37,726 nt of DNA from a virus (taxonomy: Duplodnaviria > Heunggongvirae > Uroviricota > Caudoviricetes), in IMG/VR virus record IMGVR_UViG_3300025093_000001. One strand, 5' to 3'. The notes beneath the pieces are model-generated. The model did no database searches, was not told the origin of the DNA, and saw only the letters and a list, made by a program, of their open reading frames with translations. Shown here piece by piece: positions 6,907 through 20,073 of the stretch (position 1 is the first letter of the stretch; each line of letters opens with the position of its first letter). The position numbers were made by a program, and so were the translations under genes.

Positions 6907-7434
6907 ATGGCAGGATTAAATGAAAGTATGTCTAGCTCAGAGATGTCAGCATTTCTGAAGAAACTAGAAAAAAGAATATGCTGTGTAGAGAATGGTGGAA
7001 GTTTAACTCTGGATGAGATTTCAGACGTTAATGCTACTTCCCCAACAGATACATATGTGCTTACTTATGATGCAGCTACTAATACTTGGATAGCTGCTGC
7101 TGCTTCTGGTGGTGGTGGTGCAGCCTCTTGGCAGACTGTAGCTCATTCAGTAGGTGCTGCAGGATTAGATTTATCCTCTGATTACTGGGCTTATGTAACA
7201 GGTGGTGCTAGTTTTAATGATACTATTATTGACACTAGTACTATTCAAACAGGAGTAAGACATTTAGTTCTCATTGAGAATACAACTGGCGGACAGATTA
7301 CAGTAACTCATGGTACTACAGCTATTAGTAACCTTGGTGCTACAACTGTTTTAGATTCAGGAGAGTGGTTAAGACTAGAGGTATTTGACGATGCCAATGG
7401 TGATGTTCATATTGTAGGAGGAATAGGAGTATAA
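6907..7434 (+). CDS. Short tail fibre / fibre adaptor (175 aa)
   Basis: N-terminal helical LKKLEKRICCVE segment, the classic fibre motif LDEISDVNATSPTDTYVLTYDAATNTW, a GGGG hinge and a beta-rich tip. Confidence 0.7.
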   Translation: MAGLNESMSSSEMSAFLKKLEKRICCVENGGSLTLDEISDVNATSPTDTYVLTYDAATNTWIAAAASGGGGAASWQTVAHSVGAAGLDLSSDYWAYVTGGASFNDTIIDTSTIQTGVRHLVLIENTTGGQITVTHGTTAISNLGATTVLDSGEWLRLEVFDDANGDVHIVGGIGV

Positions 7435-8156
7435 TGTTATTCGGGTATGTAGGTAAACGACCAGAGTTGGACTATCCCTTTACTGCGGATACGGCTAATA
7501 AGTCATGGGCTGCTAGTACTTACCCTACATTAAGTACCCATAGTGCTACTGTTAGTTATAATGCCACTTACTCTGAATATGGTGAAAGTAGTCTAAGAAC
7601 TACTAGTGCTACTACTAATGGTGTAAGAGTTAGTAATTGGGGAACTACTATTAAGAATAACATTGGAGGTAGCGGTTCTATTACTAATGTACAAAGAATA
7701 TTGGTGGAATCTTGGGGAAGTAATGGAAATCATACTGCTCACTATAATTACACAGGTGTTTTTGACGGTACTTATTATCAAGGTATAGGAGTAAATATAG
7801 GGTTTAACAATAGTACACCTGCTGTTGAACTTAGACTTTGGGCTTCTCCTACTCCTATAGACCCTAATATCGCACAAACTAACGTTTTAGGTACGTGGTA
7901 CACTGTAATCATAACTGGTAATCAAGACTATGCTATAGGGTTTATTAATGGCAATGTTAATAGTGGTACTCAAACCAATACAGGAGCATTTGGTTCTGGT
8001 TATAACTATGATGGTTTTGGTCTAGTTGGGTCTGGGGGAGTTAATCCTGTTGGAACAGGAGTTATGAGAAGAAAATATTGCTTCCAATTTGATGGTGCTT
8101 TAACTAGACAAGATATGTATATTCTTCACTTAAACAACGGGAGGGTAAAGTTATGA
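7434..8156 (+). CDS. Lectin-like (ConA/LamG-type) receptor-binding protein A (240 aa), paralogue of 8153-8863
   Basis: Shares G..GKRP.LD.P....TAN, YN.TYSEYGE, GTWY, VNPVGTG and IL..NNGR with the next gene. The composition is beta-sandwich-like. Confidence 0.6.
   Translation: MLFGYVGKRPELDYPFTADTANKSWAASTYPTLSTHSATVSYNATYSEYGESSLRTTSATTNGVRVSNWGTTIKNNIGGSGSITNVQRILVESWGSNGNHTAHYNYTGVFDGTYYQGIGVNIGFNNSTPAVELRLWASPTPIDPNIAQTNVLGTWYTVIITGNQDYAIGFINGNVNSGTQTNTGAFGSGYNYDGFGLVGSGGVNPVGTGVMRRKYCFQFDGALTRQDMYILHLNNGRVKL
8043..8060. repeat. 18-bp direct repeat, copy 1 (AATCCTGTTGGAACAGGA), containing a 7-2-7 dyad
   Basis: Identical to 8750-8767. TCCTGTT and AACAGGA are reverse complements. Confidence 0.9.
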
Positions 8157-8863
8157 TAATGGGATGTTTGGGTAAGAGACCGCAATTAGATGCACCTTTG
8201 AATAATTCAACCGCTAATACTTCTGTAGAAGCAAGTAGCTATCCATATTCTACTAATGTGGGTGGAAGTTTTAATTATAATGTTACCTATTCTGAATATG
8301 GAGAATATCATTTTAGAGCCACTCCTAGTAGTAGACAAGGATTAAGATATTCAAATCTTGGAACTGCTATAGGTACAGAAGTTAATACAAATGGTACTTT
8401 TGTATCTCTATATATGAAAGTATTAATAGAAACTAAAGGAACAGGGGGATATACAGTTTATAATTGGTTATATAATGGTAGTACTTCGGAACAAATAACT
8501 TTTTATGAACTTGTAAGTGGTACTGCTGTCAAAATGACAATAGAAGATACTACATCTAATGTGGATGTAGACCATAGTGCTACTTTATCTACAGGAACTT
8601 GGTATAATTTTACAGGTGTATATACAACAGGAGAGGGTTTACAATATAAAGATGGAGTGAGAGTTACTGCTACTAATGGTAGTTCTGTAGCTGTAAGACA
8701 AATAGCAACTTATGGTGGTTTTGGAGGTAACTTCGGAACAGGAACAGTAAATCCTGTTGGAACAGGAACTACACGTTGGAAAAATGTATTATATTTCCTT
8801 GATAAACTAAACATGGGAGATATACATATTCTAGAAAGTAATAACGGAAGAATAAATTATTAA
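8153..8863 (+). CDS. Lectin-like (ConA/LamG-type) receptor-binding protein B (236 aa), paralogue of 7434-8156
   Basis: Same shared motifs as the upstream gene; ATGA overlap. Confidence 0.6.
   Translation: MIMGCLGKRPQLDAPLNNSTANTSVEASSYPYSTNVGGSFNYNVTYSEYGEYHFRATPSSRQGLRYSNLGTAIGTEVNTNGTFVSLYMKVLIETKGTGGYTVYNWLYNGSTSEQITFYELVSGTAVKMTIEDTTSNVDVDHSATLSTGTWYNFTGVYTTGEGLQYKDGVRVTATNGSSVAVRQIATYGGFGGNFGTGTVNPVGTGTTRWKNVLYFLDKLNMGDIHILESNNGRINY
8750..8767. repeat. 18-bp direct repeat, copy 2 (AATCCTGTTGGAACAGGA)
   Basis: Identical to 8043-8060. Both copies end 96 nt before the last base of their gene's stop codon. Confidence 0.9.
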
Positions 8864-8867
8864 AGAA

Positions 8868-9428
8868 ATGGCAAAATTTTATTACACACAATATAACAGG
8901 TTTGTAGATTTTCCTGAGAATCAGGTTAGTCCTTCAGACATTGGTGTTGGAAAGAAATATAGAAAGGTAGATGGTGCTGCCTTAACTAGATACAACCAAG
9001 CTGTTACTGATGGTATTCCACCTACAGCAGCTTATGTGTTTGACAATGATAGTACTTATAATGACCAGATTAAACTGGCACAACGTAAGGAAGAATTACA
9101 GACTAGTTTAGAGTCTAATTATGCTACAGCAGTATCTACAGGTATTGTACGTAATACAAAGCGTTTCAGCTTTGATGCAGAAACTAGAGCTGATATTGTA
9201 GAAACTAATACAATTGTAGTTGCAGAAGGTGGAAGTGTAACCTCTGATGTTCAGTTAATAGATTCAGATGGAGAATTAGTTAGTGTACAGAGAAGTAATT
9301 GGAATACTGTATTCTTGGCATACATGAATGCTGCAAGGACAGTGGAGAAGAATTATTACAGAAAGAGTAAGCAGATTCAGAAAGCTACTCAACTTTCAGA
9401 TTTAACAAACTTTGATACATCAGTATAA
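8868..9428 (+). CDS. DUF4376-like tail-fibre chaperone (186 aa)
   Basis: KLAQRKEELQTSLESNY...RFSFDAETRADI...LIDSDGELVSV...YYRKSKQIQKATQLSDL resembles the DUF4376/fibre-assembly pattern; located after the receptor-binding genes. Confidence 0.55.
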   Translation: MAKFYYTQYNRFVDFPENQVSPSDIGVGKKYRKVDGAALTRYNQAVTDGIPPTAAYVFDNDSTYNDQIKLAQRKEELQTSLESNYATAVSTGIVRNTKRFSFDAETRADIVETNTIVVAEGGSVTSDVQLIDSDGELVSVQRSNWNTVFLAYMNAARTVEKNYYRKSKQIQKATQLSDLTNFDTSV

Positions 9429-9874
9429 TGGACAATGGTGAAATAAACAAAGAGTCCTTGTTGAAGATTATCAAGGCATCTGATTGGAAAGAAGGTATAC
9501 CATATGATGAGTTACCAAATCTTGTCAAGTTTTATAAGAAGTTTACAGCTTCTCATAATAAAGCTACGGTAAAATTTAAATTAATTCCAACTGGATTAGA
9601 GATAACTTACGCAAGTGATAATATAGACGAAATTATCGGTTACACGCCAGAAGATTTGGTAGGTAGTAACCTATCTCAATATAGCCTAAGTAACCCTTCT
9701 GAGAAGAAAATGCAATATATCATTGGACTTCTTGATGCAGGTGAGGTAGTGGTAAAATCCAGTATTATTCAGCATAAACAAGGAGGGGAGGTCTATACAA
9801 AGAGTATGATTTATAAAGATAAAGATAGATACATAGAATTTATATGGAAAGCCTCAGATGAACTATTTATTTGA
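9428..9874 (+). CDS. Stand-alone PAS-domain protein (148 aa)
   Basis: LEITYASDNIDEIIGYTPEDLVGSNL matches the PAS core (Y.S.....ILGY.PEEL.G), and IQHKQGGEVY matches the PAC-like R.KDG..W strand. There is no kinase or output domain. Confidence 0.8.
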   Translation: MDNGEINKESLLKIIKASDWKEGIPYDELPNLVKFYKKFTASHNKATVKFKLIPTGLEITYASDNIDEIIGYTPEDLVGSNLSQYSLSNPSEKKMQYIIGLLDAGEVVVKSSIIQHKQGGEVYTKSMIYKDKDRYIEFIWKASDELFI

Positions 9875-10166
9875 TATAACGCATGGACCCAGTGTATTAA
9901 CCTTAATAGCAGAAATTGGGGGAGCAGTAACTGTTCTTTTCGGACTAGTTAGGTGGTTATATACAACATATATCAAGTCATGCAAGGATAAGATAAAACA
10001 ATTGGAGGAGGAGATAAATGACCTGAGACAGAAATTACAACTGTCTGAAATACAATCAGCAGAAATGAGAACTATCATTAATATGACATCTAAGTTCTTA
10101 GAGAAAGAGTCTGCTGAGAATATAATGAATGAAGAAATTAAACAAATAGATAATGAGACAGAATAG
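9858..10166 (+). CDS. Single-pass membrane protein with coiled coil; holin-like (102 aa)
   Basis: Hydrophobic VLTLIAEIGGAVTVLFGLVRWLY followed by heptads KIKQLEEEINDLRQKLQLSE. The holin function is inferred. Confidence 0.55.
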   Translation: MNYLFDITHGPSVLTLIAEIGGAVTVLFGLVRWLYTTYIKSCKDKIKQLEEEINDLRQKLQLSEIQSAEMRTIINMTSKFLEKESAENIMNEEIKQIDNETE

Positions 10167-10653
10167 TAAGAAAGGACTAAGCAGTGCTACTTTATTAGAA
10201 TTAACTAAAAATTTAGAGTGTAGGATTTGTGAATTAGAAACTAATCCCCCAGTATTACATACTGTAGATACTATAATTACGACTAATCAAATATTAAACG
10301 GACACACTAATACTATTAATTTAGTGCCTGACACTGGAGATGAGAGTACTTTGGGTGTATATGTTGCAGCATTAGTTAAGTACAATCATAATACTACTTC
10401 CTTTACTACAGGAGGGGCTTCTTTTTCTATTAGAGGGGTTAACTATAGTACTTATCCAGGTCCACTCATTAATGATAATTTAGAATCATATTCTGCAGAT
10501 AAGATTATAAGCACTAATACTTCATTTAGTGGACACTCTATTTTTAGTGGTTTTGAATTTTTTACAGGTGGTGCTTATACATTAGGTGATGGAACTTTAA
10601 CTGTTAAATTATTCTATTATTTACTTGATATTGAAACAGGAGAATTTATATAA
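10153..10653 (+). CDS. Short fibre / spike protein (166 aa)
   Basis: N-terminal LSS..L..L.K.LECRICELE motif shared with 6907, followed by an AT-rich, beta-rich C-terminal domain. Confidence 0.55.
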   Translation: MRQNSKKGLSSATLLELTKNLECRICELETNPPVLHTVDTIITTNQILNGHTNTINLVPDTGDESTLGVYVAALVKYNHNTTSFTTGGASFSIRGVNYSTYPGPLINDNLESYSADKIISTNTSFSGHSIFSGFEFFTGGAYTLGDGTLTVKLFYYLLDIETGEFI

Positions 10654-10655
10654 TT

Positions 10656-11240
10656 ATGCCAGCATTAACATTAGATTTAACAACAACATTCGATTCTACT
10701 AACGGACAGATAGTAGTATCAGGATTTACCACAACCACAAATACAGCTTGGACTGATGTTGATGGTGGTAATACAGAAGCTATTCAAACAGTAGAATTTA
10801 ATACTTGGGTGGGATGTGATTCCTGTACAAGTTGTTCAGATGATGATTATCTTCTAGCTACTAATGAGGGAGTTACCTTAGGAGGTTCATCTACTTATTA
10901 CAGCAATACTGCAGATGATACTATCAAGATTGAACCAGAAGCTTTTCAAAAGACTGAATTTACTTATGGTGTTTATCATGTAAGGTTCTTTGTAACAGGA
11001 GATGATGCGTCTGCAGCAGAGTGGACTCAAGAGTATCATGTCTGTATCTTCGTAGCTGATGAAATTGTTTGTACAATTATCGAGGCTATTGTAGATGATG
11101 AGGTACAGTCAGATGACTTAGTGACTGTGTTTGAGGCACTTACATATGCCAATACTTGTGCCAACTGTTGTAAGACTTGTGAATTATATGAATACCTAAA
11201 TACCCTAATTGATAACTTAGATAATTGTGAAACATGTTAA
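10656..11240 (+). CDS. Cys-rich tail hub/collar-like structural protein (194 aa)
   Basis: Ig-like beta-rich N-terminal part plus a helical C-terminus with CANCCKTC...NCETC. Its position between the fibres and the ring genes suggests a hub role (inference). Confidence 0.45.
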   Translation: MPALTLDLTTTFDSTNGQIVVSGFTTTTNTAWTDVDGGNTEAIQTVEFNTWVGCDSCTSCSDDDYLLATNEGVTLGGSSTYYSNTADDTIKIEPEAFQKTEFTYGVYHVRFFVTGDDASAAEWTQEYHVCIFVADEIVCTIIEAIVDDEVQSDDLVTVFEALTYANTCANCCKTCELYEYLNTLIDNLDNCETC

Positions 11241-11506
11241 GTACAGAGGAAATAACAATAGCAAAGAATACTTTTAGAACTGCACAGTACCTAACCTCTG
11301 CTCTGTACATTCAATCTAAGATGTTTGGGTTTCAAGAGGCTGCAGCGGTTCATAGAAAAAGATTGATGAAGTATAGAAACTATGCATTCATCTTAGAATA
11401 CTACACAGAAGATTGTATAGATTGTGTTAATCTAGATGATATAGTTTGTGAAGTAGAAAATATACCAATCAAATATTTAGTAAATTGCAATGGAGAATTG
11501 TCATAA
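11234..11506 (+). CDS. Small helical Cys-containing structural protein (90 aa), possible second tail-hub subunit
   Basis: Overlaps both neighbours and carries a DCIDC...VC...NC cluster. Confidence 0.45.
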   Translation: MLSTEEITIAKNTFRTAQYLTSALYIQSKMFGFQEAAAVHRKRLMKYRNYAFILEYYTEDCIDCVNLDDIVCEVENIPIKYLVNCNGELS

Positions 11507-12479
11507 TAAAATTACACGAGAAGAATGCCTTAACCTAATTGCGTTAAGGATTAGCCAGTTTGAGGTATTAGTAGAAGCCCTGGCTGGTGCAGACTTCACT
11601 ATCCCAGTAGTAGGAGATACTATTACGGATAGATTTACTACTAATGAGGCAAGTATTACTACTAACCAAGGTAATATCTCAACGAATACTAGTAACATAT
11701 CTACTAACACAACTAATATAGCTACTAACACTGCTAACATTGCTACTAATGTTACAAACATTGCAACTAATGCTGCGGATATTGCTACGTTACAAAGTCA
11801 AGACGGACGTACAGTAACATCTAGTGATACAAGTGTAGATGTAGATGCTGCAACTTCAACAGAGTATGATATCACTATTTCTATGTTAGCTGCCAATACT
11901 GATGTGGCTAATTCGGAGCCAGCACTTGTTTTAGCAGCAGCTAAGACTGGTTCTGGAGAGCATACCTATACTTTGAAGACTAGGAATATGCCCGACCAAG
12001 CTATGTCAGCATTTGCTGGCGGTGTATCTGCAGGAACTGTAACTCCAGCTGTTAGAAAAACTACAGCAGGGCCATTTAGACTTTTGGGAGACTTTGCTCT
12101 CACTAACTTTGTTATTAACTGGGACCTCTCAGCTAATGATGGTCAAGAGTCTGACTGGATGAATGTAGCAACATTACCTGCAACTTATAATCCATCAGGA
12201 GAAGGTTCAGCTGTAAGTATCTATCCTTCAACTACTATCTACGCACCAATTGTTATCTTTGCTACAGAGACAAGTTCTCTTACTGAGGCAGTTAACCTTA
12301 TTGGTATTGCTAGAGTTACAAACCTTGGAGCTATTGATATTAAGGTAGCTACTCCATATAGATTTGTTGTATCAGGTACTGCTATTGAAGAGGGACACGT
12401 CCTTGCTTCAGGTACAGATTGGACAGGTCAATATACAGGAACACTTTATTTACAAAGTGTAACTTGGGATTGGGAGTAA
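11490..12479 (+). CDS. Tail fibre with trimeric coiled-coil shaft (329 aa)
   Basis: Seven I-x-x-N heptads. The C-terminal NVATLPATYNP resembles the xTLPxGxRP motif of phage fibre C-terminal domains. Confidence 0.75.
   Translation: MENCHNKITREECLNLIALRISQFEVLVEALAGADFTIPVVGDTITDRFTTNEASITTNQGNISTNTSNISTNTTNIATNTANIATNVTNIATNAADIATLQSQDGRTVTSSDTSVDVDAATSTEYDITISMLAANTDVANSEPALVLAAAKTGSGEHTYTLKTRNMPDQAMSAFAGGVSAGTVTPAVRKTTAGPFRLLGDFALTNFVINWDLSANDGQESDWMNVATLPATYNPSGEGSAVSIYPSTTIYAPIVIFATETSSLTEAVNLIGIARVTNLGAIDIKVATPYRFVVSGTAIEEGHVLASGTDWTGQYTGTLYLQSVTWDWE
11655..11801 (+). repeat. 21-nt/7-aa tandem heptad repeat (ITTNQGN ISTNTSN ISTNTTN IATNTAN IATNVTN IATNAAD IATLQSQ)
   Basis: Read directly from the translation: Ile at position a and Asn at position d in six of seven heptads. 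Confidence 0.9.
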
Positions 12480-13611: not shown

Positions 13612-14367
13612 ATGACAATAAGAGAAGTTTGCGAAAGAGTTCAATCAGCTTACCAAGCAGGTGTAGCAACAGATGACAGTAGGATGAGCTATAGGCTCAT
13701 CTTTTCTGCGTTAAAGAGTGCAAAGGCAACTCTGCTATATCAAAGAGGCAGTAAGCGTAGACAACTTTCAGATAGAAATATTGAGTTTTTAGAATGTGTA
13801 CCTATGGAAGTAGCAGAGCCTCATGACTGTCCTTGTGCTCCACCTACAGGATGTACCATACTGAAATCAACATGCACAATCCCTAGACCTGTCTCATCAT
13901 CTCATGGAGATTATATCCATGCGGTGACATCTATTGATGGTACTAAGACGTTCTCTAGAACAACATGGGTGGCTAAGTCTAAGAAGAAAGGGAATAAGTA
14001 TACTTCTAAAACTCAGGACTTCTTCTTTAAAGATGATTACTTGTATTTAACTGCTCCTACAGCAGACCAAAAATTACTTAAGACAGTTACAGTTGCTGGT
14101 ATCTTTGCAGATACTACTGACTTTGATTGTGACTTTTGTGCAGAATGTGATGATGAAACTAAGGATTGCCCAACTCCATTGGACAGTGAGTTCAAGATAG
14201 ATATCTCTTTAGAGATACCTGTCATTGATTTGGCTACCAAAGAGTTAATTAGAGCATTCAATACACAATACGAAGATAGAGAAAACAACGCAGAAGATGA
14301 TGCAACAAACCCAGACAAGAAGTACCCGAGAGGAAGATTCAGTGACCCTAGGAGACCTATACAATAA
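13612..14367 (+). CDS. crAss-type tail ring / head-tail connector protein (251 aa)
   Basis: Contains DCPCAPPTGCTILKS.CTIP, FFFKDDYLY and a C-terminal F.ID..L...VIDL pattern. Its position immediately before the IHF-like and tail tubular genes is as in crAss-like phages. Confidence 0.6.
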   Translation: MTIREVCERVQSAYQAGVATDDSRMSYRLIFSALKSAKATLLYQRGSKRRQLSDRNIEFLECVPMEVAEPHDCPCAPPTGCTILKSTCTIPRPVSSSHGDYIHAVTSIDGTKTFSRTTWVAKSKKKGNKYTSKTQDFFFKDDYLYLTAPTADQKLLKTVTVAGIFADTTDFDCDFCAECDDETKDCPTPLDSEFKIDISLEIPVIDLATKELIRAFNTQYEDRENNAEDDATNPDKKYPRGRFSDPRRPIQ

Positions 14368-14755
14368 ATATAGGAGAGAGAATAAAGACACTCCATTTCA
14401 TCTAGAAGCTTCTGAATTTAAGAAAGCTGCTAAGATGGTTTTTCAGGGCATTGTTGATGAACTTCTAACAGGTAAAACTTATAAGCTCCCTTACAATATG
14501 GGAGACCTATATGTAGATAAGTTCAAAGGTAAGAGTAATACAGTAGACTTTGGTGCTACCAAAAAATATGGCAAGACCATTTACCATCAAAACTTTCACT
14601 CAGATGGATTTATCTACAAACTTAAATGGCGTAAGGCTCATTCAAGATTTCAGAATAGGAAGATGTATAACTTCAAATTGATTCGTAAACATTCAAGGAA
14701 CTTATCATCTCTTATAAAACAGAATAAAATAAAGATATTCAAACACTATGGCTAA
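14297..14755 (+). CDS. IHF/HU-like DNA-binding protein (crAss-type); the start may instead be the GTG at 14342
   Basis: FKKAAKMVFQGIVDELLTGKTYKLPYNMGDLYV matches the HU/IHF helix-turn-strand pattern. The protein is basic and sits in the conserved crAss position before the tail tubular gene. Confidence 0.7.
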   Translation: MMQQTQTRSTREEDSVTLGDLYNKYRRENKDTPFHLEASEFKKAAKMVFQGIVDELLTGKTYKLPYNMGDLYVDKFKGKSNTVDFGATKKYGKTIYHQNFHSDGFIYKLKWRKAHSRFQNRKMYNFKLIRKHSRNLSSLIKQNKIKIFKHYG

Positions 14756-15695
14756 CCACAATTTGATTTCAGTTGATACAATTATCTCTAAACTATTTAG
14801 AGAGAATATCATTGGTCCTGAATATAATGAATCCGATGTTATTGAAATGATAGGGGAAGCCCTAGCAGCCATTGGAGCATTTAAACAGTTTGAGGAGAAG
14901 GTAGAGTTTCTAGAGATTAAAGACCATAAGGCATTACTTCCAGAGGGAATGCAGGAGATTGTTATGGCAGCTTATTCTCTTAGCACAGATGTGAGCACAG
15001 ATGATTGCACTACTTCATGTGGTGTAGATGATACATGCTTAGGTGCATGTGATGAAGAAGACCCAGATGAATGTTGGAGTTCTCATAACAGATATTATAT
15101 CCCTGAGCAGAGGTATTATGATGTTGTGAAGGATTACCAAACAATCTACAGCAAGTTCACAAAAGACTTCTATCGTAACTTCTTACCACTGAGATTGGCA
15201 GCAAGTCCATTCAGTGTGACCAATATGATGCATTGTGAAAACTGTATCAATATGGTTTATCCAAGTGAGTATGAATATAGCATTAGGAATGGAATGATTT
15301 ATACTTCGTTCCAAGAGGGTAATGTATGCCTCGCCTATCTAAGCATGCCACTTGATGATAATGGCTACCCTATGATACCAGACCTATTTGAGTATCAGGA
15401 AGCTATTACTGCATATATTATGATGAAGGATGCTAAGTCTCGTTACTACAACGAGCCATCCGCAGCTTATAGAGCTTTGTACAGAGAGCTAACTAGAGAT
15501 TGGCATTGGTATGTACGAGCAGCTAAGAATAGACAAATGATGCCTAGCAATATTGACGAGAGGGAAAGATTGTATAGAGGTAATATGAAGCTAATAAAAC
15601 AACATAGAGGTTATACTAACTTCTTTGGCAACTTAAATGACTTAGATAGATTTAATTTACATGGCGGAACGACAAGAAAGAGATACAGGTATTAA
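14748..15695 (+). CDS. Tail tubular (ring; P22 gp4-like) protein (315 aa)
   Basis: ISVDTIISKL...DVIEMIGEAL..IG and Y.I.NG.I.TSF.EG.V.LAY...PLDDNGYPMIPD...EAI..YI, typical of crAss tubular/ring proteins; supported by synteny. Confidence 0.7.
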   Translation: MANHNLISVDTIISKLFRENIIGPEYNESDVIEMIGEALAAIGAFKQFEEKVEFLEIKDHKALLPEGMQEIVMAAYSLSTDVSTDDCTTSCGVDDTCLGACDEEDPDECWSSHNRYYIPEQRYYDVVKDYQTIYSKFTKDFYRNFLPLRLAASPFSVTNMMHCENCINMVYPSEYEYSIRNGMIYTSFQEGNVCLAYLSMPLDDNGYPMIPDLFEYQEAITAYIMMKDAKSRYYNEPSAAYRALYRELTRDWHWYVRAAKNRQMMPSNIDERERLYRGNMKLIKQHRGYTNFFGNLNDLDRFNLHGGTTRKRYRY

Positions 15696-18600
15696 GATTA
15701 CTGGACCTCGTAAAGGTCTCTTTACTGATACATCTCACGAACAACAACCACAAGGTACTTATCCTTTTGCTCTTAATGCTGTAGATGATTCTACGGAGGG
15801 GGATATCTTTGCTCTCTCAAATGAAAACTCTAATATAGAGTGTGCTTCTGTACCAGATTCTTATATCCTATTAGGTAATGCCTATATGGAAGATGGAATG
15901 AATGTATTATTCTATGTAGATAATGATACAGGTAATTCCATCATCTCAACACTAGATAAGAACTGTAAACTTGTAAACTATGTTACATCTGATTGTTTAG
16001 GCTTTAATAGAAACTACCCTATTGAAGCATCTTTCAGAGTACGTAACGGTTGTGAAAGAATTATCTATTGGGTAGACCATCTTAATCCAGATAGACATCT
16101 TAATCTAGATGACCTGGACACTTTCATTAGAGATGACTATGATGAGGTAACTGACCCAGAAGAATCTAAATGGTACTGCCCACAATTTAATGTTGATAAA
16201 CTGACTGAACCAGTATGTATTGAGTTTATTTCTTTAAATGAGAATGGTGGAAACCTTCCGTCAGGTGCTCTCCAACTTGCAGTACAACATCTGGATGAAA
16301 ACTTAAATGGTGCTGGATACTGTGACCCAACACCAGTCATCGCTATTATTGATGACTTCTACTCACAAACTTATTCACAGATAACTGGTTGTGAAGCAGG
16401 TACTACAACAAATAAATCTGTCACAACTACAATCAGTAATATTGACACTAACTATGCTTACCTAGAGATAGTAGCTATTCTAACTGTTAATGGTGTTACA
16501 ACTCATTACAGTATAGAGAACTTACCTATCAATGGGGCTAGTATGGAATATACATTAACAGGTATCCTTGACAGTTCTACCGTCATCCCTGACATCTCTT
16601 ATGTCAAAAATGTATATTCATCTAAAACTATTACTCAATTAGAGAATAGACTTATTCGTGGAAACATAAAGGCTCCTAGTAGAGACTTCACAAGCCTTCA
16701 AGCATTAGCTAATGATATTCAGACTTTCTACTATACAAAGAATGGTAGAGCAGATGATACGACTAATCCTCGTAAATTCTCAGCTAAGCAGGGTTCATAC
16801 TATTATGACAACAGGTCATATATGAGGGATGAGGTATATGCTTTTGGTATCTATTACATCTATGAAGATGGTGATAGGTCACCAGTATTCCACATTCCTG
16901 GTAGAGAGAAAAATAAATTTGCTGATGGTGCTACTATACCATCAGCTGACCCTAACAATGGTGGACCACAATATCATCCTAGATACCCAGTAGATACATC
17001 TACAGGTGGTTGGGATGATTGTACTTACGAAGTAGTAACTAATGGTTTAGGTAATAAGACAGATAAAATTGATGAACATGAGGTAGCTCATCTTGGTTTA
17101 TCTGCAGCCAATAGTGATACAGTAGAAAGATGGAAAGTATTTAATACTGCTCGTAAGGATACTACATTAGGTGATAGTGCATTAAGACCTTTAGGTGAGT
17201 ATGGATTTACTGACCTTGAATCTACAGGTACATTGGCTTATCATGAATGTGATACAGCAACTTATCCTACTACACAGGACTGTGATGGTAATTATATCTA
17301 TGGAGATTTGGCTGGTGAAAAAATACGTCACCACAGAATGCCTGATGCTTCATTGGAACTTCACTATAAGAAGGATGGATTTGGTCGTAACATCTATCCA
17401 TTAGGTATTGCCTTTGACAATATTTCTCTTCCTGCTGGAGTTGTTGGATATAAGATTGTTAGGGCGGATAGAACTCCTCTTAATAAGACAGTATTAGATA
17501 AAGGTATTGGATACTTTGGTAGAAAAGCTACTATTAGTACTGGAGATTCTTTTGATTTCCAAGCTGCAATGATGAATAAGCATTATCCAACTACAGCTAA
17601 CCTAGATACTTATGTTCCTGCGGGAGCAGAAGCAGGTGCTTTATTAGGTACTGTTACTTCTGGAGTGAGTTCTAGACAGGATAAAATAGCATTCCATTCA
17701 GCATATACTAAATTTATTGGTGCAGGTATTAAACCTAGTCACATTAAGTCAGAGCTTTTGTTTGAGGCAGATATTGATGCTATTGGACCAGTTGGTGCTA
17801 CTGCTGGTGAAGGCGGTGGATATGAAGCTATTTATGACAATGTAACTCAGATTAGGATTAATTCTAAGTGTAATATACCTATTACGCAAAGCTCTTATAT
17901 AGGAGCTAATACTATAGATAGAGGTACATTCTCAAGAAAGAAGATTAATAACTTCCAGCAAGAGACCCTGTGGTTAGAATCTAATGTAGATTCTGTTATA
18001 TTAGATGAAAATAATGTAGATGTTGGTATTCAAGCCGACTTAGCTATTTATGATACTGGTACTAATAATTCAGATTATGTTGGTTACTATTCACTTAAAG
18101 CTTCTGGCTTTGATGTATATACTAATCTAGAGAATCTAATTTATTTGCCTGTCAGTGTTTGTATGCAGACACAGGAATTTACTACAGAGTTTGGTGGAGA
18201 TATCTTTATTGCCAGGATGGATTTCAATCAGACATTCAGAGCTGAATTTGATGGTAGTGTTACTACTTACTTTGAAGCTCTTAGTACTGGTGTGACTACT
18301 TGGAATTATAGTAACCTTGTTACTTATTGGGCAGAAAGTGAAGTTAACTCAGAGTTGCGACACGAATTACCTGACCAAACATTCTATCCTAAGTCTCATA
18401 CATTAACTCTGTGGGATGATTTCTTAGAACCAGCATTACAAGGCGGTAACTATATCCCTAACTATTATAACTACAATACTGACTACTCGTTAAATAATAG
18501 GGAGATTACTTTTATACAACTCCCGCTTACATGGAACTATTGTTCTGATTGTTTGAATGAGTTTACAAATAGAGTAGTATACTCAGAGAGAAGTTATCAA

Positions 18601-20073
18601 GAGGAACTTGCTGACCACTATTTAAACACTCTTATCAACAACTATAAGGATATCAACTCTAATAGAGGAGGTATAACTAAGCTGTTCAACTTTAAGAATA
18701 CACTCTTTGTAGATACAGAGGAGAGTAGGTTTGTATTACCCTCAACAAGTAAGGCTATTAAGGTCTCGGAAGAAACTATTAACCTAGGCACTGGAGAGTT
18801 CTTCTCTTTACCTGTACAAGAAATTGTAGATTCAGATATTGGTTATTTAGGTAATCAGAGTCAGTGGGCTATGGATATAACAGAGAATGGTGTATTCTCT
18901 ATAGATGCAGAGGCGGGTAATATATTCTTATATACTAAGGGTATACAAAACCTAGCCAGTCCTAAGTATGGTATGCACGGATTCTTTAAGGAACACCTAC
19001 CTCTAAATCTACCTGCACAATATGAAGACCTTAAGAATGGAGTTGGAAGTAATCCAAATTATATTCATGAGGATAGTCCTGTTAACCCTTATAATGGTAT
19101 AGGATACACTTCTGTATATGATGCAAGAAATGAAAGATGGATACTTACTAAGCATGACTATAGATTAACTGCATTAGGAGAGTCTTATGTACAGGGAACT
19201 ACAGTTCTTGTGGGAGGCGTACTTGTGCCTACTCGCATGGATATAGTTGATGGTACTTGGACTATCTTCTCGGGATTGACCTCATATGAGATTACTCCAC
19301 ACACTAGACCACTACTCTTCGAAGATATTGGTTGGACTATCTCCTTCTCAATGAAGAGGTCTGCTTGGATTAGTTTCCATAGCTATAGACCAACTAACTA
19401 TATCAGTAGTAAATTACACTTCCTGTCCGTAGATAATAAACTACAAATTGGTATAATTGATGGTCAGGATACTACAGGTATTTGGAAACATGGTGAGAAG
19501 TTCAGTTACCAAAACTTCTATGGTACTATATATCCACACATCATTGAAATGGTAGAATCTTCTAATCCTTTGGAAACTAGAGTATATGATTCTATTGGCT
19601 TTGTAACCAAAGCTAAGCAGTGGGATTCAACTAACAACTACTTCGTAGATAAGAGATTGATAACCTTTGATAAAGCAATCTTATACAATAACTATCAGAG
19701 TTCAGGGGAGCTAACCCTAGTAACCAAGCGGGATGACACTACTGGAATCTTACAAAGAAGTCAGGAGTATGTACAGACTGAGGCTCTATTAGATATTAAT
19801 GAGAGAACATTCTCATTCAATAACTTTAGAGACATGGTTGGTGACTATGATGTACCACTATTCACAAAAAATTGGGGTAATTCAGACTATCAGTCTAATT
19901 ACTACATAGACAAGATTATAAATCCATCAGCAATAAACTTGAATAAAAACTGGTGGGAACAGGATGTTTTTAGGGGTAAACACTTGACTTTACGGTTATT
20001 TTTTAGTATATTTGACAATGTGAAACTTTCTACACAAGTAAAAGTTTTTCAAACGAACACTACAGCACGATAA
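15661..20073 (+). CDS. Tail stabilisation / muzzle protein (P22 gp10-like, 1470 aa)
   Basis: Size, synteny and motifs: N-terminal KGLFTD...Y.FALNA, IYWVD..NPDR.LN, RSYMRDEVYAFGI.Y...DG..SPVFHIPGR, and C-terminal WT.SFS....WISFHSY.P. Confidence 0.8.
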   Translation: MAERQERDTGIKITGPRKGLFTDTSHEQQPQGTYPFALNAVDDSTEGDIFALSNENSNIECASVPDSYILLGNAYMEDGMNVLFYVDNDTGNSIISTLDKNCKLVNYVTSDCLGFNRNYPIEASFRVRNGCERIIYWVDHLNPDRHLNLDDLDTFIRDDYDEVTDPEESKWYCPQFNVDKLTEPVCIEFISLNENGGNLPSGALQLAVQHLDENLNGAGYCDPTPVIAIIDDFYSQTYSQITGCEAGTTTNKSVTTTISNIDTNYAYLEIVAILTVNGVTTHYSIENLPINGASMEYTLTGILDSSTVIPDISYVKNVYSSKTITQLENRLIRGNIKAPSRDFTSLQALANDIQTFYYTKNGRADDTTNPRKFSAKQGSYYYDNRSYMRDEVYAFGIYYIYEDGDRSPVFHIPGREKNKFADGATIPSADPNNGGPQYHPRYPVDTSTGGWDDCTYEVVTNGLGNKTDKIDEHEVAHLGLSAANSDTVERWKVFNTARKDTTLGDSALRPLGEYGFTDLESTGTLAYHECDTATYPTTQDCDGNYIYGDLAGEKIRHHRMPDASLELHYKKDGFGRNIYPLGIAFDNISLPAGVVGYKIVRADRTPLNKTVLDKGIGYFGRKATISTGDSFDFQAAMMNKHYPTTANLDTYVPAGAEAGALLGTVTSGVSSRQDKIAFHSAYTKFIGAGIKPSHIKSELLFEADIDAIGPVGATAGEGGGYEAIYDNVTQIRINSKCNIPITQSSYIGANTIDRGTFSRKKINNFQQETLWLESNVDSVILDENNVDVGIQADLAIYDTGTNNSDYVGYYSLKASGFDVYTNLENLIYLPVSVCMQTQEFTTEFGGDIFIARMDFNQTFRAEFDGSVTTYFEALSTGVTTWNYSNLVTYWAESEVNSELRHELPDQTFYPKSHTLTLWDDFLEPALQGGNYIPNYYNYNTDYSLNNREITFIQLPLTWNYCSDCLNEFTNRVVYSERSYQEELADHYLNTLINNYKDINSNRGGITKLFNFKNTLFVDTEESRFVLPSTSKAIKVSEETINLGTGEFFSLPVQEIVDSDIGYLGNQSQWAMDITENGVFSIDAEAGNIFLYTKGIQNLASPKYGMHGFFKEHLPLNLPAQYEDLKNGVGSNPNYIHEDSPVNPYNGIGYTSVYDARNERWILTKHDYRLTALGESYVQGTTVLVGGVLVPTRMDIVDGTWTIFSGLTSYEITPHTRPLLFEDIGWTISFSMKRSAWISFHSYRPTNYISSKLHFLSVDNKLQIGIIDGQDTTGIWKHGEKFSYQNFYGTIYPHIIEMVESSNPLETRVYDSIGFVTKAKQWDSTNNYFVDKRLITFDKAILYNNYQSSGELTLVTKRDDTTGILQRSQEYVQTEALLDINERTFSFNNFRDMVGDYDVPLFTKNWGNSDYQSNYYIDKIINPSAINLNKNWWEQDVFRGKHLTLRLFFSIFDNVKLSTQVKVFQTNTTAR
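19984..20014 (+). promoter_or_regulatory. Candidate Bacteroidota promoter embedded in the 3' end of the muzzle gene (TTG, 20-nt spacer, TATATTTG)
   Basis: TTG at 19984-19986 and TATATTTG at 20007-20014, with a T-rich spacer, about 60 nt upstream of the cargo-gene ATG at 20076. Confidence 0.5.

Follow-up and report, generated by a model that had tools for sequence, protein, structure and literature searches.

A stand-alone PAS protein gene linked to a small membrane protein gene in uncultured phages: a candidate lysis-timing module

We found that a gene for a stand-alone PAS protein and a gene for a small single-pass membrane protein, which overlap in the late operon of an uncultured crAss-like phage, stay together in distant uncultured phages, and that in several of these the pair lies directly beside an M15-type endolysin gene. 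With moderate confidence we read the two proteins, called PAS1 and TM-CC below, as a lysis-timing module, in which a holin-type or holin-controlling bitopic protein would offer a cytoplasmic helix as docking site to one or two PAS sensors.

The gene pair and its operon

The window, that is, the whole stretch of 37,726 nucleotides analysed here, contains both ORFs where an earlier note on this DNA had placed them, and the lengths of 148 and 102 aa and the overlap of 17 nt given there all match. Both genes start with ATG. Their features are as follows:

9428..9874, plus strand: stand-alone cytoplasmic PAS protein, 148 aa, PAS1 type (TIGR00229, PDB phmmer, AF2, Foldseek)
9428..9559, plus strand: N-terminal helical cap, residues 1-44 (AF2 helices 8-17 and 31-41; family motif PNLxxFY in alignment A1)
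9560..9850, plus strand: PAS core, residues 45-141, with two strands, short helices and three strands (AF2, Foldseek, phmmer)
9858..9874, plus strand: 17-nt overlap of the two genes; the membrane-protein gene is in the +1 frame and begins before the PAS stop codon
9858..10166, plus strand: single-pass membrane protein TM-CC, 102 aa, with a helical tail predicted to be cytoplasmic (phrog_1009 member)
9894..9950, plus strand: glycine-rich transmembrane helix, residues 13-31 (Kyte-Doolittle 2.17)
9969..10157, plus strand: charged helical tail with heptad periodicity, residues ~38-100 (family motif AEMxxxLxMTSKxLK)

The pair is tightly packed into its surroundings. The start codon of the PAS gene shares one nucleotide with the stop codon of an upstream 186-aa ORF, and the next ORF, which begins at 10153, overlaps the 3' end of the membrane-protein gene by 14 nt. 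In the relative L001, the two genes likewise overlap by 17 nt. When the 17-nt overlap was inspected by eye for a possible frameshift fusion of the two ORFs, no X XXY YYZ slippery site was seen. A scan for sigma-70-type promoters returned 11 promoter-like sites against 14.7 in shuffled sequence, which is fewer than expected by chance, and no terminators flank the pair. The overlaps with neighbouring genes and the lack of a promoter excess fit late co-expression, and both proteins would accordingly be made late, along with the tail genes.

The window as a whole is a single long same-strand late operon of a crAss-like phage, in which the following genes serve as landmarks:

10656-11240: conserved Cys-rich protein
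13612-14367: CrAss_Ring_2 (Pfam, E 3e-26)
14748-15695: CrAss_Ring_1 (Pfam, E 5e-48)
15661-20073: muzzle protein, crAss_MUZ (Pfam, E 2.5e-53)

A Crass_capsid protein and a P22-type portal are encoded on the same 102-kb metagenomic contig. With Ring 1, Ring 2, the muzzle and the crAss capsid protein, the phage belongs to the Crassvirales, and among cultured phages its closest relatives, with about 30% protein identity, are the Fpv1-type phages of Flavobacterium psychrophilum. The earlier note had set the pair inside a tail-fibre array and had found no endolysin in the window. The first statement is plausible, as fibre-like genes stand on both sides: upstream are Laminin_G_3 proteins and paralogous small fibre-like genes, and downstream come a 166-aa gene of fibre-like type and a 329-aa gene rich in repeats. 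The second holds to the extent that no scanned ORF matched an endolysin family, the five ORFs from 20076 onwards having been compared with PHROGs only.

A position between fibre-like genes would suit a role in virion morphogenesis, with the pair acting as a membrane-tethered assembly or chaperone factor for fibre proteins or as a minor part of the virion. The same is suggested by L001, L007 and L010, where the pair is found immediately upstream of the conserved Cys-rich protein, from which it is separated in the window by the 166-aa fibre-like gene. However, the pair gave no PHROG structural-protein matches, and in a siphovirus-like lineage it follows the tail genes and stands between a patatin gene and an endolysin. 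To our knowledge, neither PAS domains nor bitopic membrane proteins occur as virion parts. We consider a morphogenetic role quite improbable.

Architecture of the two proteins

PAS1 has neither a signal peptide nor an output domain. In agreement with the PAS signature that had been noticed before, it scored 31.2 bits with the NCBIfam model TIGR00229 (PAS S-box / sensory_box; cut-off 22.9, E 1.9e-7), while Pfam PAS models stayed under their gathering scores (PAS_9, 22.9 vs 27; PAS_3, 21.3 vs 25.6). In a phmmer search of PDB sequences, HIF-2alpha, HIF-3alpha and HIF-1alpha were matched in their PAS-B domains, at E ~1e-5 across 70 residues. When 1.8 billion representatives were searched with phmmer, 298 matches were obtained, among them 11 small stand-alone proteins of 137-157 aa; many others are long proteins with several matched stretches, which we read as probable multi-PAS sensor proteins.

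The structure of PAS1 was modelled with AF2 on the 12-sequence alignment A1, which gave a pLDDT of 87.4, as compared with only 38 for single-sequence AF2. The model has PAS topology after two N-terminal helices, with strands at residues 45-53, 56-62, 108-115, 121-131 and 134-141 and helices between them, i.e. a five-stranded antiparallel PAS fold. Foldseek of this model against the PDB returned 477 matches at E<=0.001, and all of the best 50 are PAS or LOV domains. The best matches were short LOV proteins, the LOV domains of aureochrome and phototropin, and HIF-2alpha PAS-B, with a Foldseek probability of 1.0, E values of ~2e-6 and a target TM-score of up to 0.79 (HIF-2alpha PAS-B). The PAS fold was thus confirmed by model and structure search together. 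Judged by sequence and model, the first ORF encodes a true stand-alone PAS protein, and its N-terminal helical cap is a candidate contact surface for the membrane partner.

The short stand-alone LOV proteins PpSB1-LOV and W619_1-LOV, which together with HIF-2alpha PAS-B match PAS1 best in structure and in sequence, resemble it in having a PAS core, helical extensions and no effector domain. In contrast to them, PAS1 is phage-encoded, is coupled to a membrane protein and has no flavin-binding cysteine motif. Identity as a LOV photoreceptor was rejected because the flavin-adduct cysteine of the GxNCRFLQ motif is missing; the place of GxNCRFL in LOV domains is taken by GSNLSQY in the window protein and by GKxLSxx in the family consensus. 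No Cys or His is conserved across the PAS1 family in alignment A1, nor are any ligand-defining residues.

TM-CC consists of one hydrophobic helix and a heptad-periodic helical, probably coiled-coil, tail with a hydrophobic period of 3.4-3.5 residues, which fits its earlier description as a 102-aa single-TM coiled-coil protein. Residues 15-101 matched phrog_1009, a family of unknown function, at E 1.1e-8, as did six of the eight TM-CC family members to the same family. Homologues from eight loci align (alignment A2) with a common C-terminal motif, and sizes in the family range from 81 to 110 aa. The window protein has no K/R before the helix and three after it, and is predicted to be N-out/C-in. 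This bias is general: in 16/16 members, 3-6 K/R fall within the 15 residues that follow the helix, and 0-2 within the N-terminal stub of 2-15 residues. The K/R excess after the helix predicts, by the positive-inside rule, a cytoplasmic tail, in the same compartment as the PAS protein. Small size, a TMD and a charged C-terminus predicted to be cytoplasmic are features that TM-CC shares with the holin class. A search of the ESM Atlas yielded generic long-helix look-alikes only.

Linkage and endolysin neighbourhood in relatives

The survey of relatives covered nine lineages, all uncultured, and was made apart from the PAS1 homologues P0003, P0004, P0105 and P0151 and the TM-CC homologues P0157, P0158, P0159 and P0164. 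Eight of these lineages carry PAS1: the window, L001, L007, L008 (L008/9), L010 (L010/11), L012 (L012/13), L014 (L014/15) and L016/L022. In 8/8, the TM-CC gene is directly downstream of PAS1, within a few bases of the PAS stop codon. The PAS protein of L001 is 55% identical to that of the window, and the linkage holds down to 24-30% PAS identity. Searching from the TM-CC side led to L022, with PAS1 upstream of TM-CC, and to L017-L019, in which a second, sequence-distinct PAS type (PAS2) is found directly downstream of TM-CC; the L014 copy of PAS2 matched Pfam PAS_3 at E 1.8e-15. There are three gene orders, namely PAS1-TM-CC, TM-CC-PAS2 and PAS1-TM-CC-PAS2, the last in L010 and L014. TM-CC is always accompanied by at least one stand-alone PAS protein in the lineages examined, so that the adjacency of PAS and membrane protein, on which the earlier note had made its case depend, is conserved in all of them. 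A fusion of PAS with a holin-like TM-coiled-coil protein, which had also been envisaged, was not found among the longer proteins searched, and this counts as weak evidence.

Broader scans added no members, and the family is therefore rare in the collections searched. Among the cultured phages of INPHARED, nothing meaningful was obtained for the DNA of the region, PAS1, TM-CC, PAS2, the L014 TM-CC or the L014 tail protein, and the L014 patatin gave two weak matches only, in uncultured giant phages. No relatives were returned from IMG/VR, whether PAS1 by itself or the alignments A1 and A3 served as query. A scan of JGI metagenomes gave 10 loci, of which eight matched the PAS core only; the other two, L031 and L032, in which the match spans most of the protein, were rejected as bacterial PAS histidine kinases. 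Structural matches in BFVD to the Cellulophaga phages phi18:3 and phi19:1 were also rejected, with an rmsd of 12-14 and no TIGR00229 match in either genome.

The lysis link that was lacking in the window is present in relatives. In four non-crAss lineages (L008, L014, L017-19 and L022) the module directly adjoins an M15-type endolysin, and in a fifth (L012) the case is weaker. The order in L008 is a 138-aa TM protein, PAS1, TM-CC, Peptidase_M15_3 (E 1.4e-17), a 190-aa protein and a metallophosphatase, and the 190-aa protein combines a lipobox with a TM helix at the C-terminus, as is the architecture of a unimolecular spanin. The siphovirus-like lineage (L014, L017-19, L022) has tail genes, HNH, a patatin-like phospholipase, (PAS1), TM-CC, (PAS2), the endolysin and early genes, in this order. 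The L014 endolysin matched phrog_465 at E 2.4e-32, the L022 copy is 67% identical to it, and the endolysin of this lineage has no hydrophobic segment of signal or SAR type. TM-CC is the sole small membrane protein of the whole locus in L014, L017, L019 and L022 (loci of 4-16 kb), and the only nearby membrane protein in three of the four endolysin-adjacent lineages. In several unrelated uncultured phages the module thus belongs to the lysis cassette, and as the sole membrane protein beside a soluble endolysin there, TM-CC would most likely be holin-type or holin-controlling. In L012 the order is a patatin fragment, PAS1, TM-CC, a multi-TM 129-aa protein, a secreted protein with a weak match to an endolysin family, and a 100-aa N-terminal-TM protein; since multi-TM and N-terminal-TM proteins stand beside it there, TM-CC need not be the holin.

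An N-terminal TM helix followed by a coiled coil is also the gross architecture of i-spanins, and TM-CC might be a short Rz-like i-spanin that aids outer-membrane disruption, with the PAS gene as a mere neighbour. Weak profile matches point in this direction, to phrog_214 for the window protein (E 0.0038), to phrog_1152 for one member (E 9.3e-6) and to phrog_739 for two members. Typical i-spanins, however, have about 130-170 aa and are longer than any TM-CC protein. Moreover, a lipobox-bearing o-spanin ORF (at least 25 aa, same strand) embedded in or following TM-CC was missing in 7/8 loci, and the exception, L008, has the lipobox protein described above, which resembles a self-sufficient unimolecular spanin. 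The K/R bias of all 16 members predicts a topology opposite to the N-in/C-out one of i-spanins, whose coiled coil is periplasmic, and the constant partner is a cytoplasmic PAS protein. An i-spanin identity thus appears very unlikely to us, and a holin-type or holin-controlling protein is the reading that we carry forward.

Lysis control in the window phage and its possible mechanism

No endolysin adjoins the pair in the window phage or in its crAss-like relatives L001, L007 and L010. By walking upstream along the 102-kb contig with exact-protein look-ups, we came upon a candidate lysis cassette that immediately precedes the terminase gene, some 20 kb upstream of the pair, and so has the same position as the annotated endolysin of Fpv1. 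This cassette comprises a GroES-like gene, a 330-aa hydrolase protein, a 162-aa polytopic membrane protein, an 89-aa N-terminal-TM protein and an overlapping 103-aa ORF. The 330-aa protein, which has four TM helices, scored 83 bits with the hydrolase model TIGR02594 (cut-off 70.55) and is the candidate endolysin of this phage. Because this separate candidate cassette has its own membrane proteins, the pair in the window phage probably regulates lysis timing in an accessory role and is less likely to supply the main holin. The earlier proposal that the pair times lysis gains from the endolysin neighbourhood in relatives; the separate cassette speaks against TM-CC as the principal holin and for a regulator.

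Accessory genes are common at the ends of tail-fibre blocks as well as in lysis cassettes, and neighbourhood alone is therefore no proof of a lysis role. The pair could be a membrane-anchored sensor with another task, such as superinfection exclusion, a block of DNA entry or a late adjustment of the host membrane, which happens to occupy the usual landing sites of accessory genes. Its two neighbourhoods, a fibre block (window, L001, L007, L010) and a lysis block (L008, L012, L014, L017, L022), would agree with this, as would the full-looking lysis cassette that the window phage already has elsewhere and the generic sensor nature of PAS domains. Yet the overlapping genes, the lack of a promoter excess and the absence of flanking terminators are not like an autonomous moron, no PADLOC defence model was matched at E <= 0.001, and in three lineages TM-CC is the only candidate able to release a soluble endolysin. 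We regard such a non-lysis sensor as unlikely. A defence system was rejected as well, the sole PADLOC match being a marginal one of TM-CC to PDC-S66 (E 0.0052).

For the lysis-timing module, we propose the following mechanism. A PAS sensor in the cytoplasm and a small bitopic inner-membrane protein would form one conserved phage module. The N-terminus of TM-CC, which is very short, would be external and lead into the single glycine-rich membrane helix, and its tail, helical and probably a coiled coil, would lie in the cytoplasm. This tail is the probable docking site of the PAS protein, and docking may shift the oligomerisation of TM-CC on a cytoplasmic cue, which could be a metabolite, the redox state or the energy state; the shift would then bring lysis forward or delay it. 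In the window phage, the pair would work as an accessory timer or antiholin-like regulator and not as the sole holin. More tentatively, the module may be a PAS-gated lysis clock, in which one or two dedicated cytoplasmic PAS sensors of host metabolite, redox or energy state determine when a holin-type protein fires; this stronger form we find possible but doubtful.

Known systems offer partial precedents. Among phage PAS receptors, VqmA(Phage) of vibriophage VP882 comes nearest; its binding of a small molecule reportedly decides when the host is lysed. It is a phage-encoded PAS-domain receptor (PMC8284805). VqmA combines PAS with DNA binding as a transcription factor on the lysis-lysogeny switch; PAS1, in contrast, has no DNA-binding domain and has a membrane-protein partner in a late operon. 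The nearest functional precedent for TM-CC is LysF1b of F1-cluster mycobacteriophages (Girr gp35 / NormanBulbieJr gp33), whose deletion causes severe lysis defects (PMC13056207). LysF1b is encoded in the lysis cassette, overlaps the neighbouring gene and is paired with a 2-TMD holin-like protein (PMC13056207). Like TM-CC, it shows one N-terminal TMD, a predicted N-out/C-in topology, basic residues after the TMD and an extended charged helical tail (PMC13056207). By its description, LysF1b differs in its Gram-positive-type mycobacterial hosts and in that no PAS partner is described for it (PMC13056207), while the TM-CC proteins are shorter and belong to phages whose hosts are probably Bacteroidota. 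RI/RIII of T4 are the nearest precedent for a regulator that is separate from the single-TMD holin. The T4 antiholin RIII acts from the cytoplasm (PMC8385771, PMC11413866), and holin T with RI/RIII resembles the proposed module in that a single-TMD lysis protein is timed by a separate small sensor or binding protein. Unlike TM-CC, T bears a large periplasmic domain, and its topology is the reverse; RI does its sensing in the periplasm, and a PAS fold is absent from T, RI and RIII alike. The searches run, none of them a direct comparison, brought up no link to these three proteins.

A search of the literature brought up no paper in which a PAS domain is connected with a holin, antiholin or lysis cassette of a phage, and no work on lysis control in crAss-like or other Bacteroidota-type phages; the module was not found in any paper or cultured phage searched. 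Lysis timing sets the burst size and fitness of a phage. Its known inputs are holin accumulation and membrane potential, together with periplasmic or cytoplasmic antiholins in a few model coliphages. The PAS/TM-CC pair beside an endolysin in uncultured phages suggests an undescribed sensor input to this timing. If this is true, phages can make the time of lysis depend on a chemical or redox signal from within the host. A PAS-gated clock, should it exist, would be the first case of a ligand-sensing domain wired straight into the lysis machinery, not via transcription or periplasmic DNA sensing, and would occur in crAss-like and other marine phages, some of which would have a patatin phospholipase replacing spanins. 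As the module is small (two genes, ~740 bp), it is easy to test and might serve as a ligand-controlled lysis switch, and through it the control of lysis in crAss-like and other Bacteroidota-type phages would become open to functional study for the first time.

PAS proteins and their relatives

The closest sequence matches of the phage PAS protein (window 9428-9874) in solved structures were animal HIF-alpha PAS-B domains (E 1e-5), and not bacterial PAS domains. Convergence by chance within so short a domain probably accounts for this likeness. A second stand-alone PAS type, of 132-141 aa and with strong Pfam PAS_3/PAS matches, was found directly 3' of the membrane-protein gene in a crAss-like relative and in the siphovirus-like lineage:

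L010:2451-2876, second PAS type, crAss-like relative
L014:6738-7136, second PAS type, siphovirus-like lineage
L017:8302-8700, second PAS type, siphovirus-like lineage

No sequence similarity was detectable between PAS1 and this second type (BLASTP E 1.1), and in some phages the membrane-protein gene was flanked by both.

Candidate lysis genes near and far from the module

In the window's own phage, a candidate lysis cassette was located roughly 20 kb 5' of the PAS/TM-CC pair, immediately ahead of the terminase gene and preceded by a GroES-like gene. In L008, another uncultured phage, a 190-aa protein was encoded directly 3' of the M15 endolysin.

L021:5310-7314, candidate lysis cassette
L008:2047-2619, 190-aa protein

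The cassette encodes a 330-aa protein, in which four TM helices are fused to a TIGR02594 hydrolase, and a polytopic membrane protein of 162 aa. It also contains the gene for an 89-aa protein with an N-terminal TM helix, and an overlapping ORF of 103 aa whose product is hydrophobic at its C-terminus. The L008 protein, for which no family match was found, carries a lipobox-like signal (LLNGC) at its N-terminus, a coiled coil in the middle and a TM helix at its C-terminus, a layout that matches unimolecular spanins of the T1 gp11 type.

At four loci, the PAS/TM-CC module was directly preceded and overlapped by a patatin-like phospholipase gene, which lies inside the lysis cassette in the siphovirus-like lineage:

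L014:5148-6008, patatin-like gene
L017:7148-8014, patatin-like gene
L022:788-1657, patatin-like gene
L012:51-461, patatin-like gene

Its product weakly matched CBASS-type phospholipase effector models (E 4e-9). No spanin candidates were seen in the lysis cassette of this lineage; the phospholipase may stand in for spanins, or attack the membrane at lysis.

Fibre-like and other genes around the pair

The pair is surrounded in the window by fibre-like and other genes:

6907-7434, 175-aa fibre-like protein
7434-8156, 240-aa tandem paralogue
8153-8863, 236-aa tandem paralogue
10153-10653, 166-aa fibre-like protein
10656-11240, 194-aa protein, Cys-rich C-terminus
11490-12479, 329-aa protein, short Thr/Asn-rich repeats near N-terminus

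No family match was found for the last two. In the crAss-like relatives L001, L007 and L010, the 194-aa protein, with several CxxC-like pairs in its C-terminal part, was kept directly 3' of the module. The TNxxNIxTN-like repeat run of the 329-aa protein is typical of fibre shafts. The tandem paralogues share 32% identity (E 4e-29), and the 175-aa and 166-aa proteins share 25% identity (E 2e-4) and an N-terminal 'L..LE.RIC' motif. These two pairs of genes suggest a diversified set of receptor-binding proteins.
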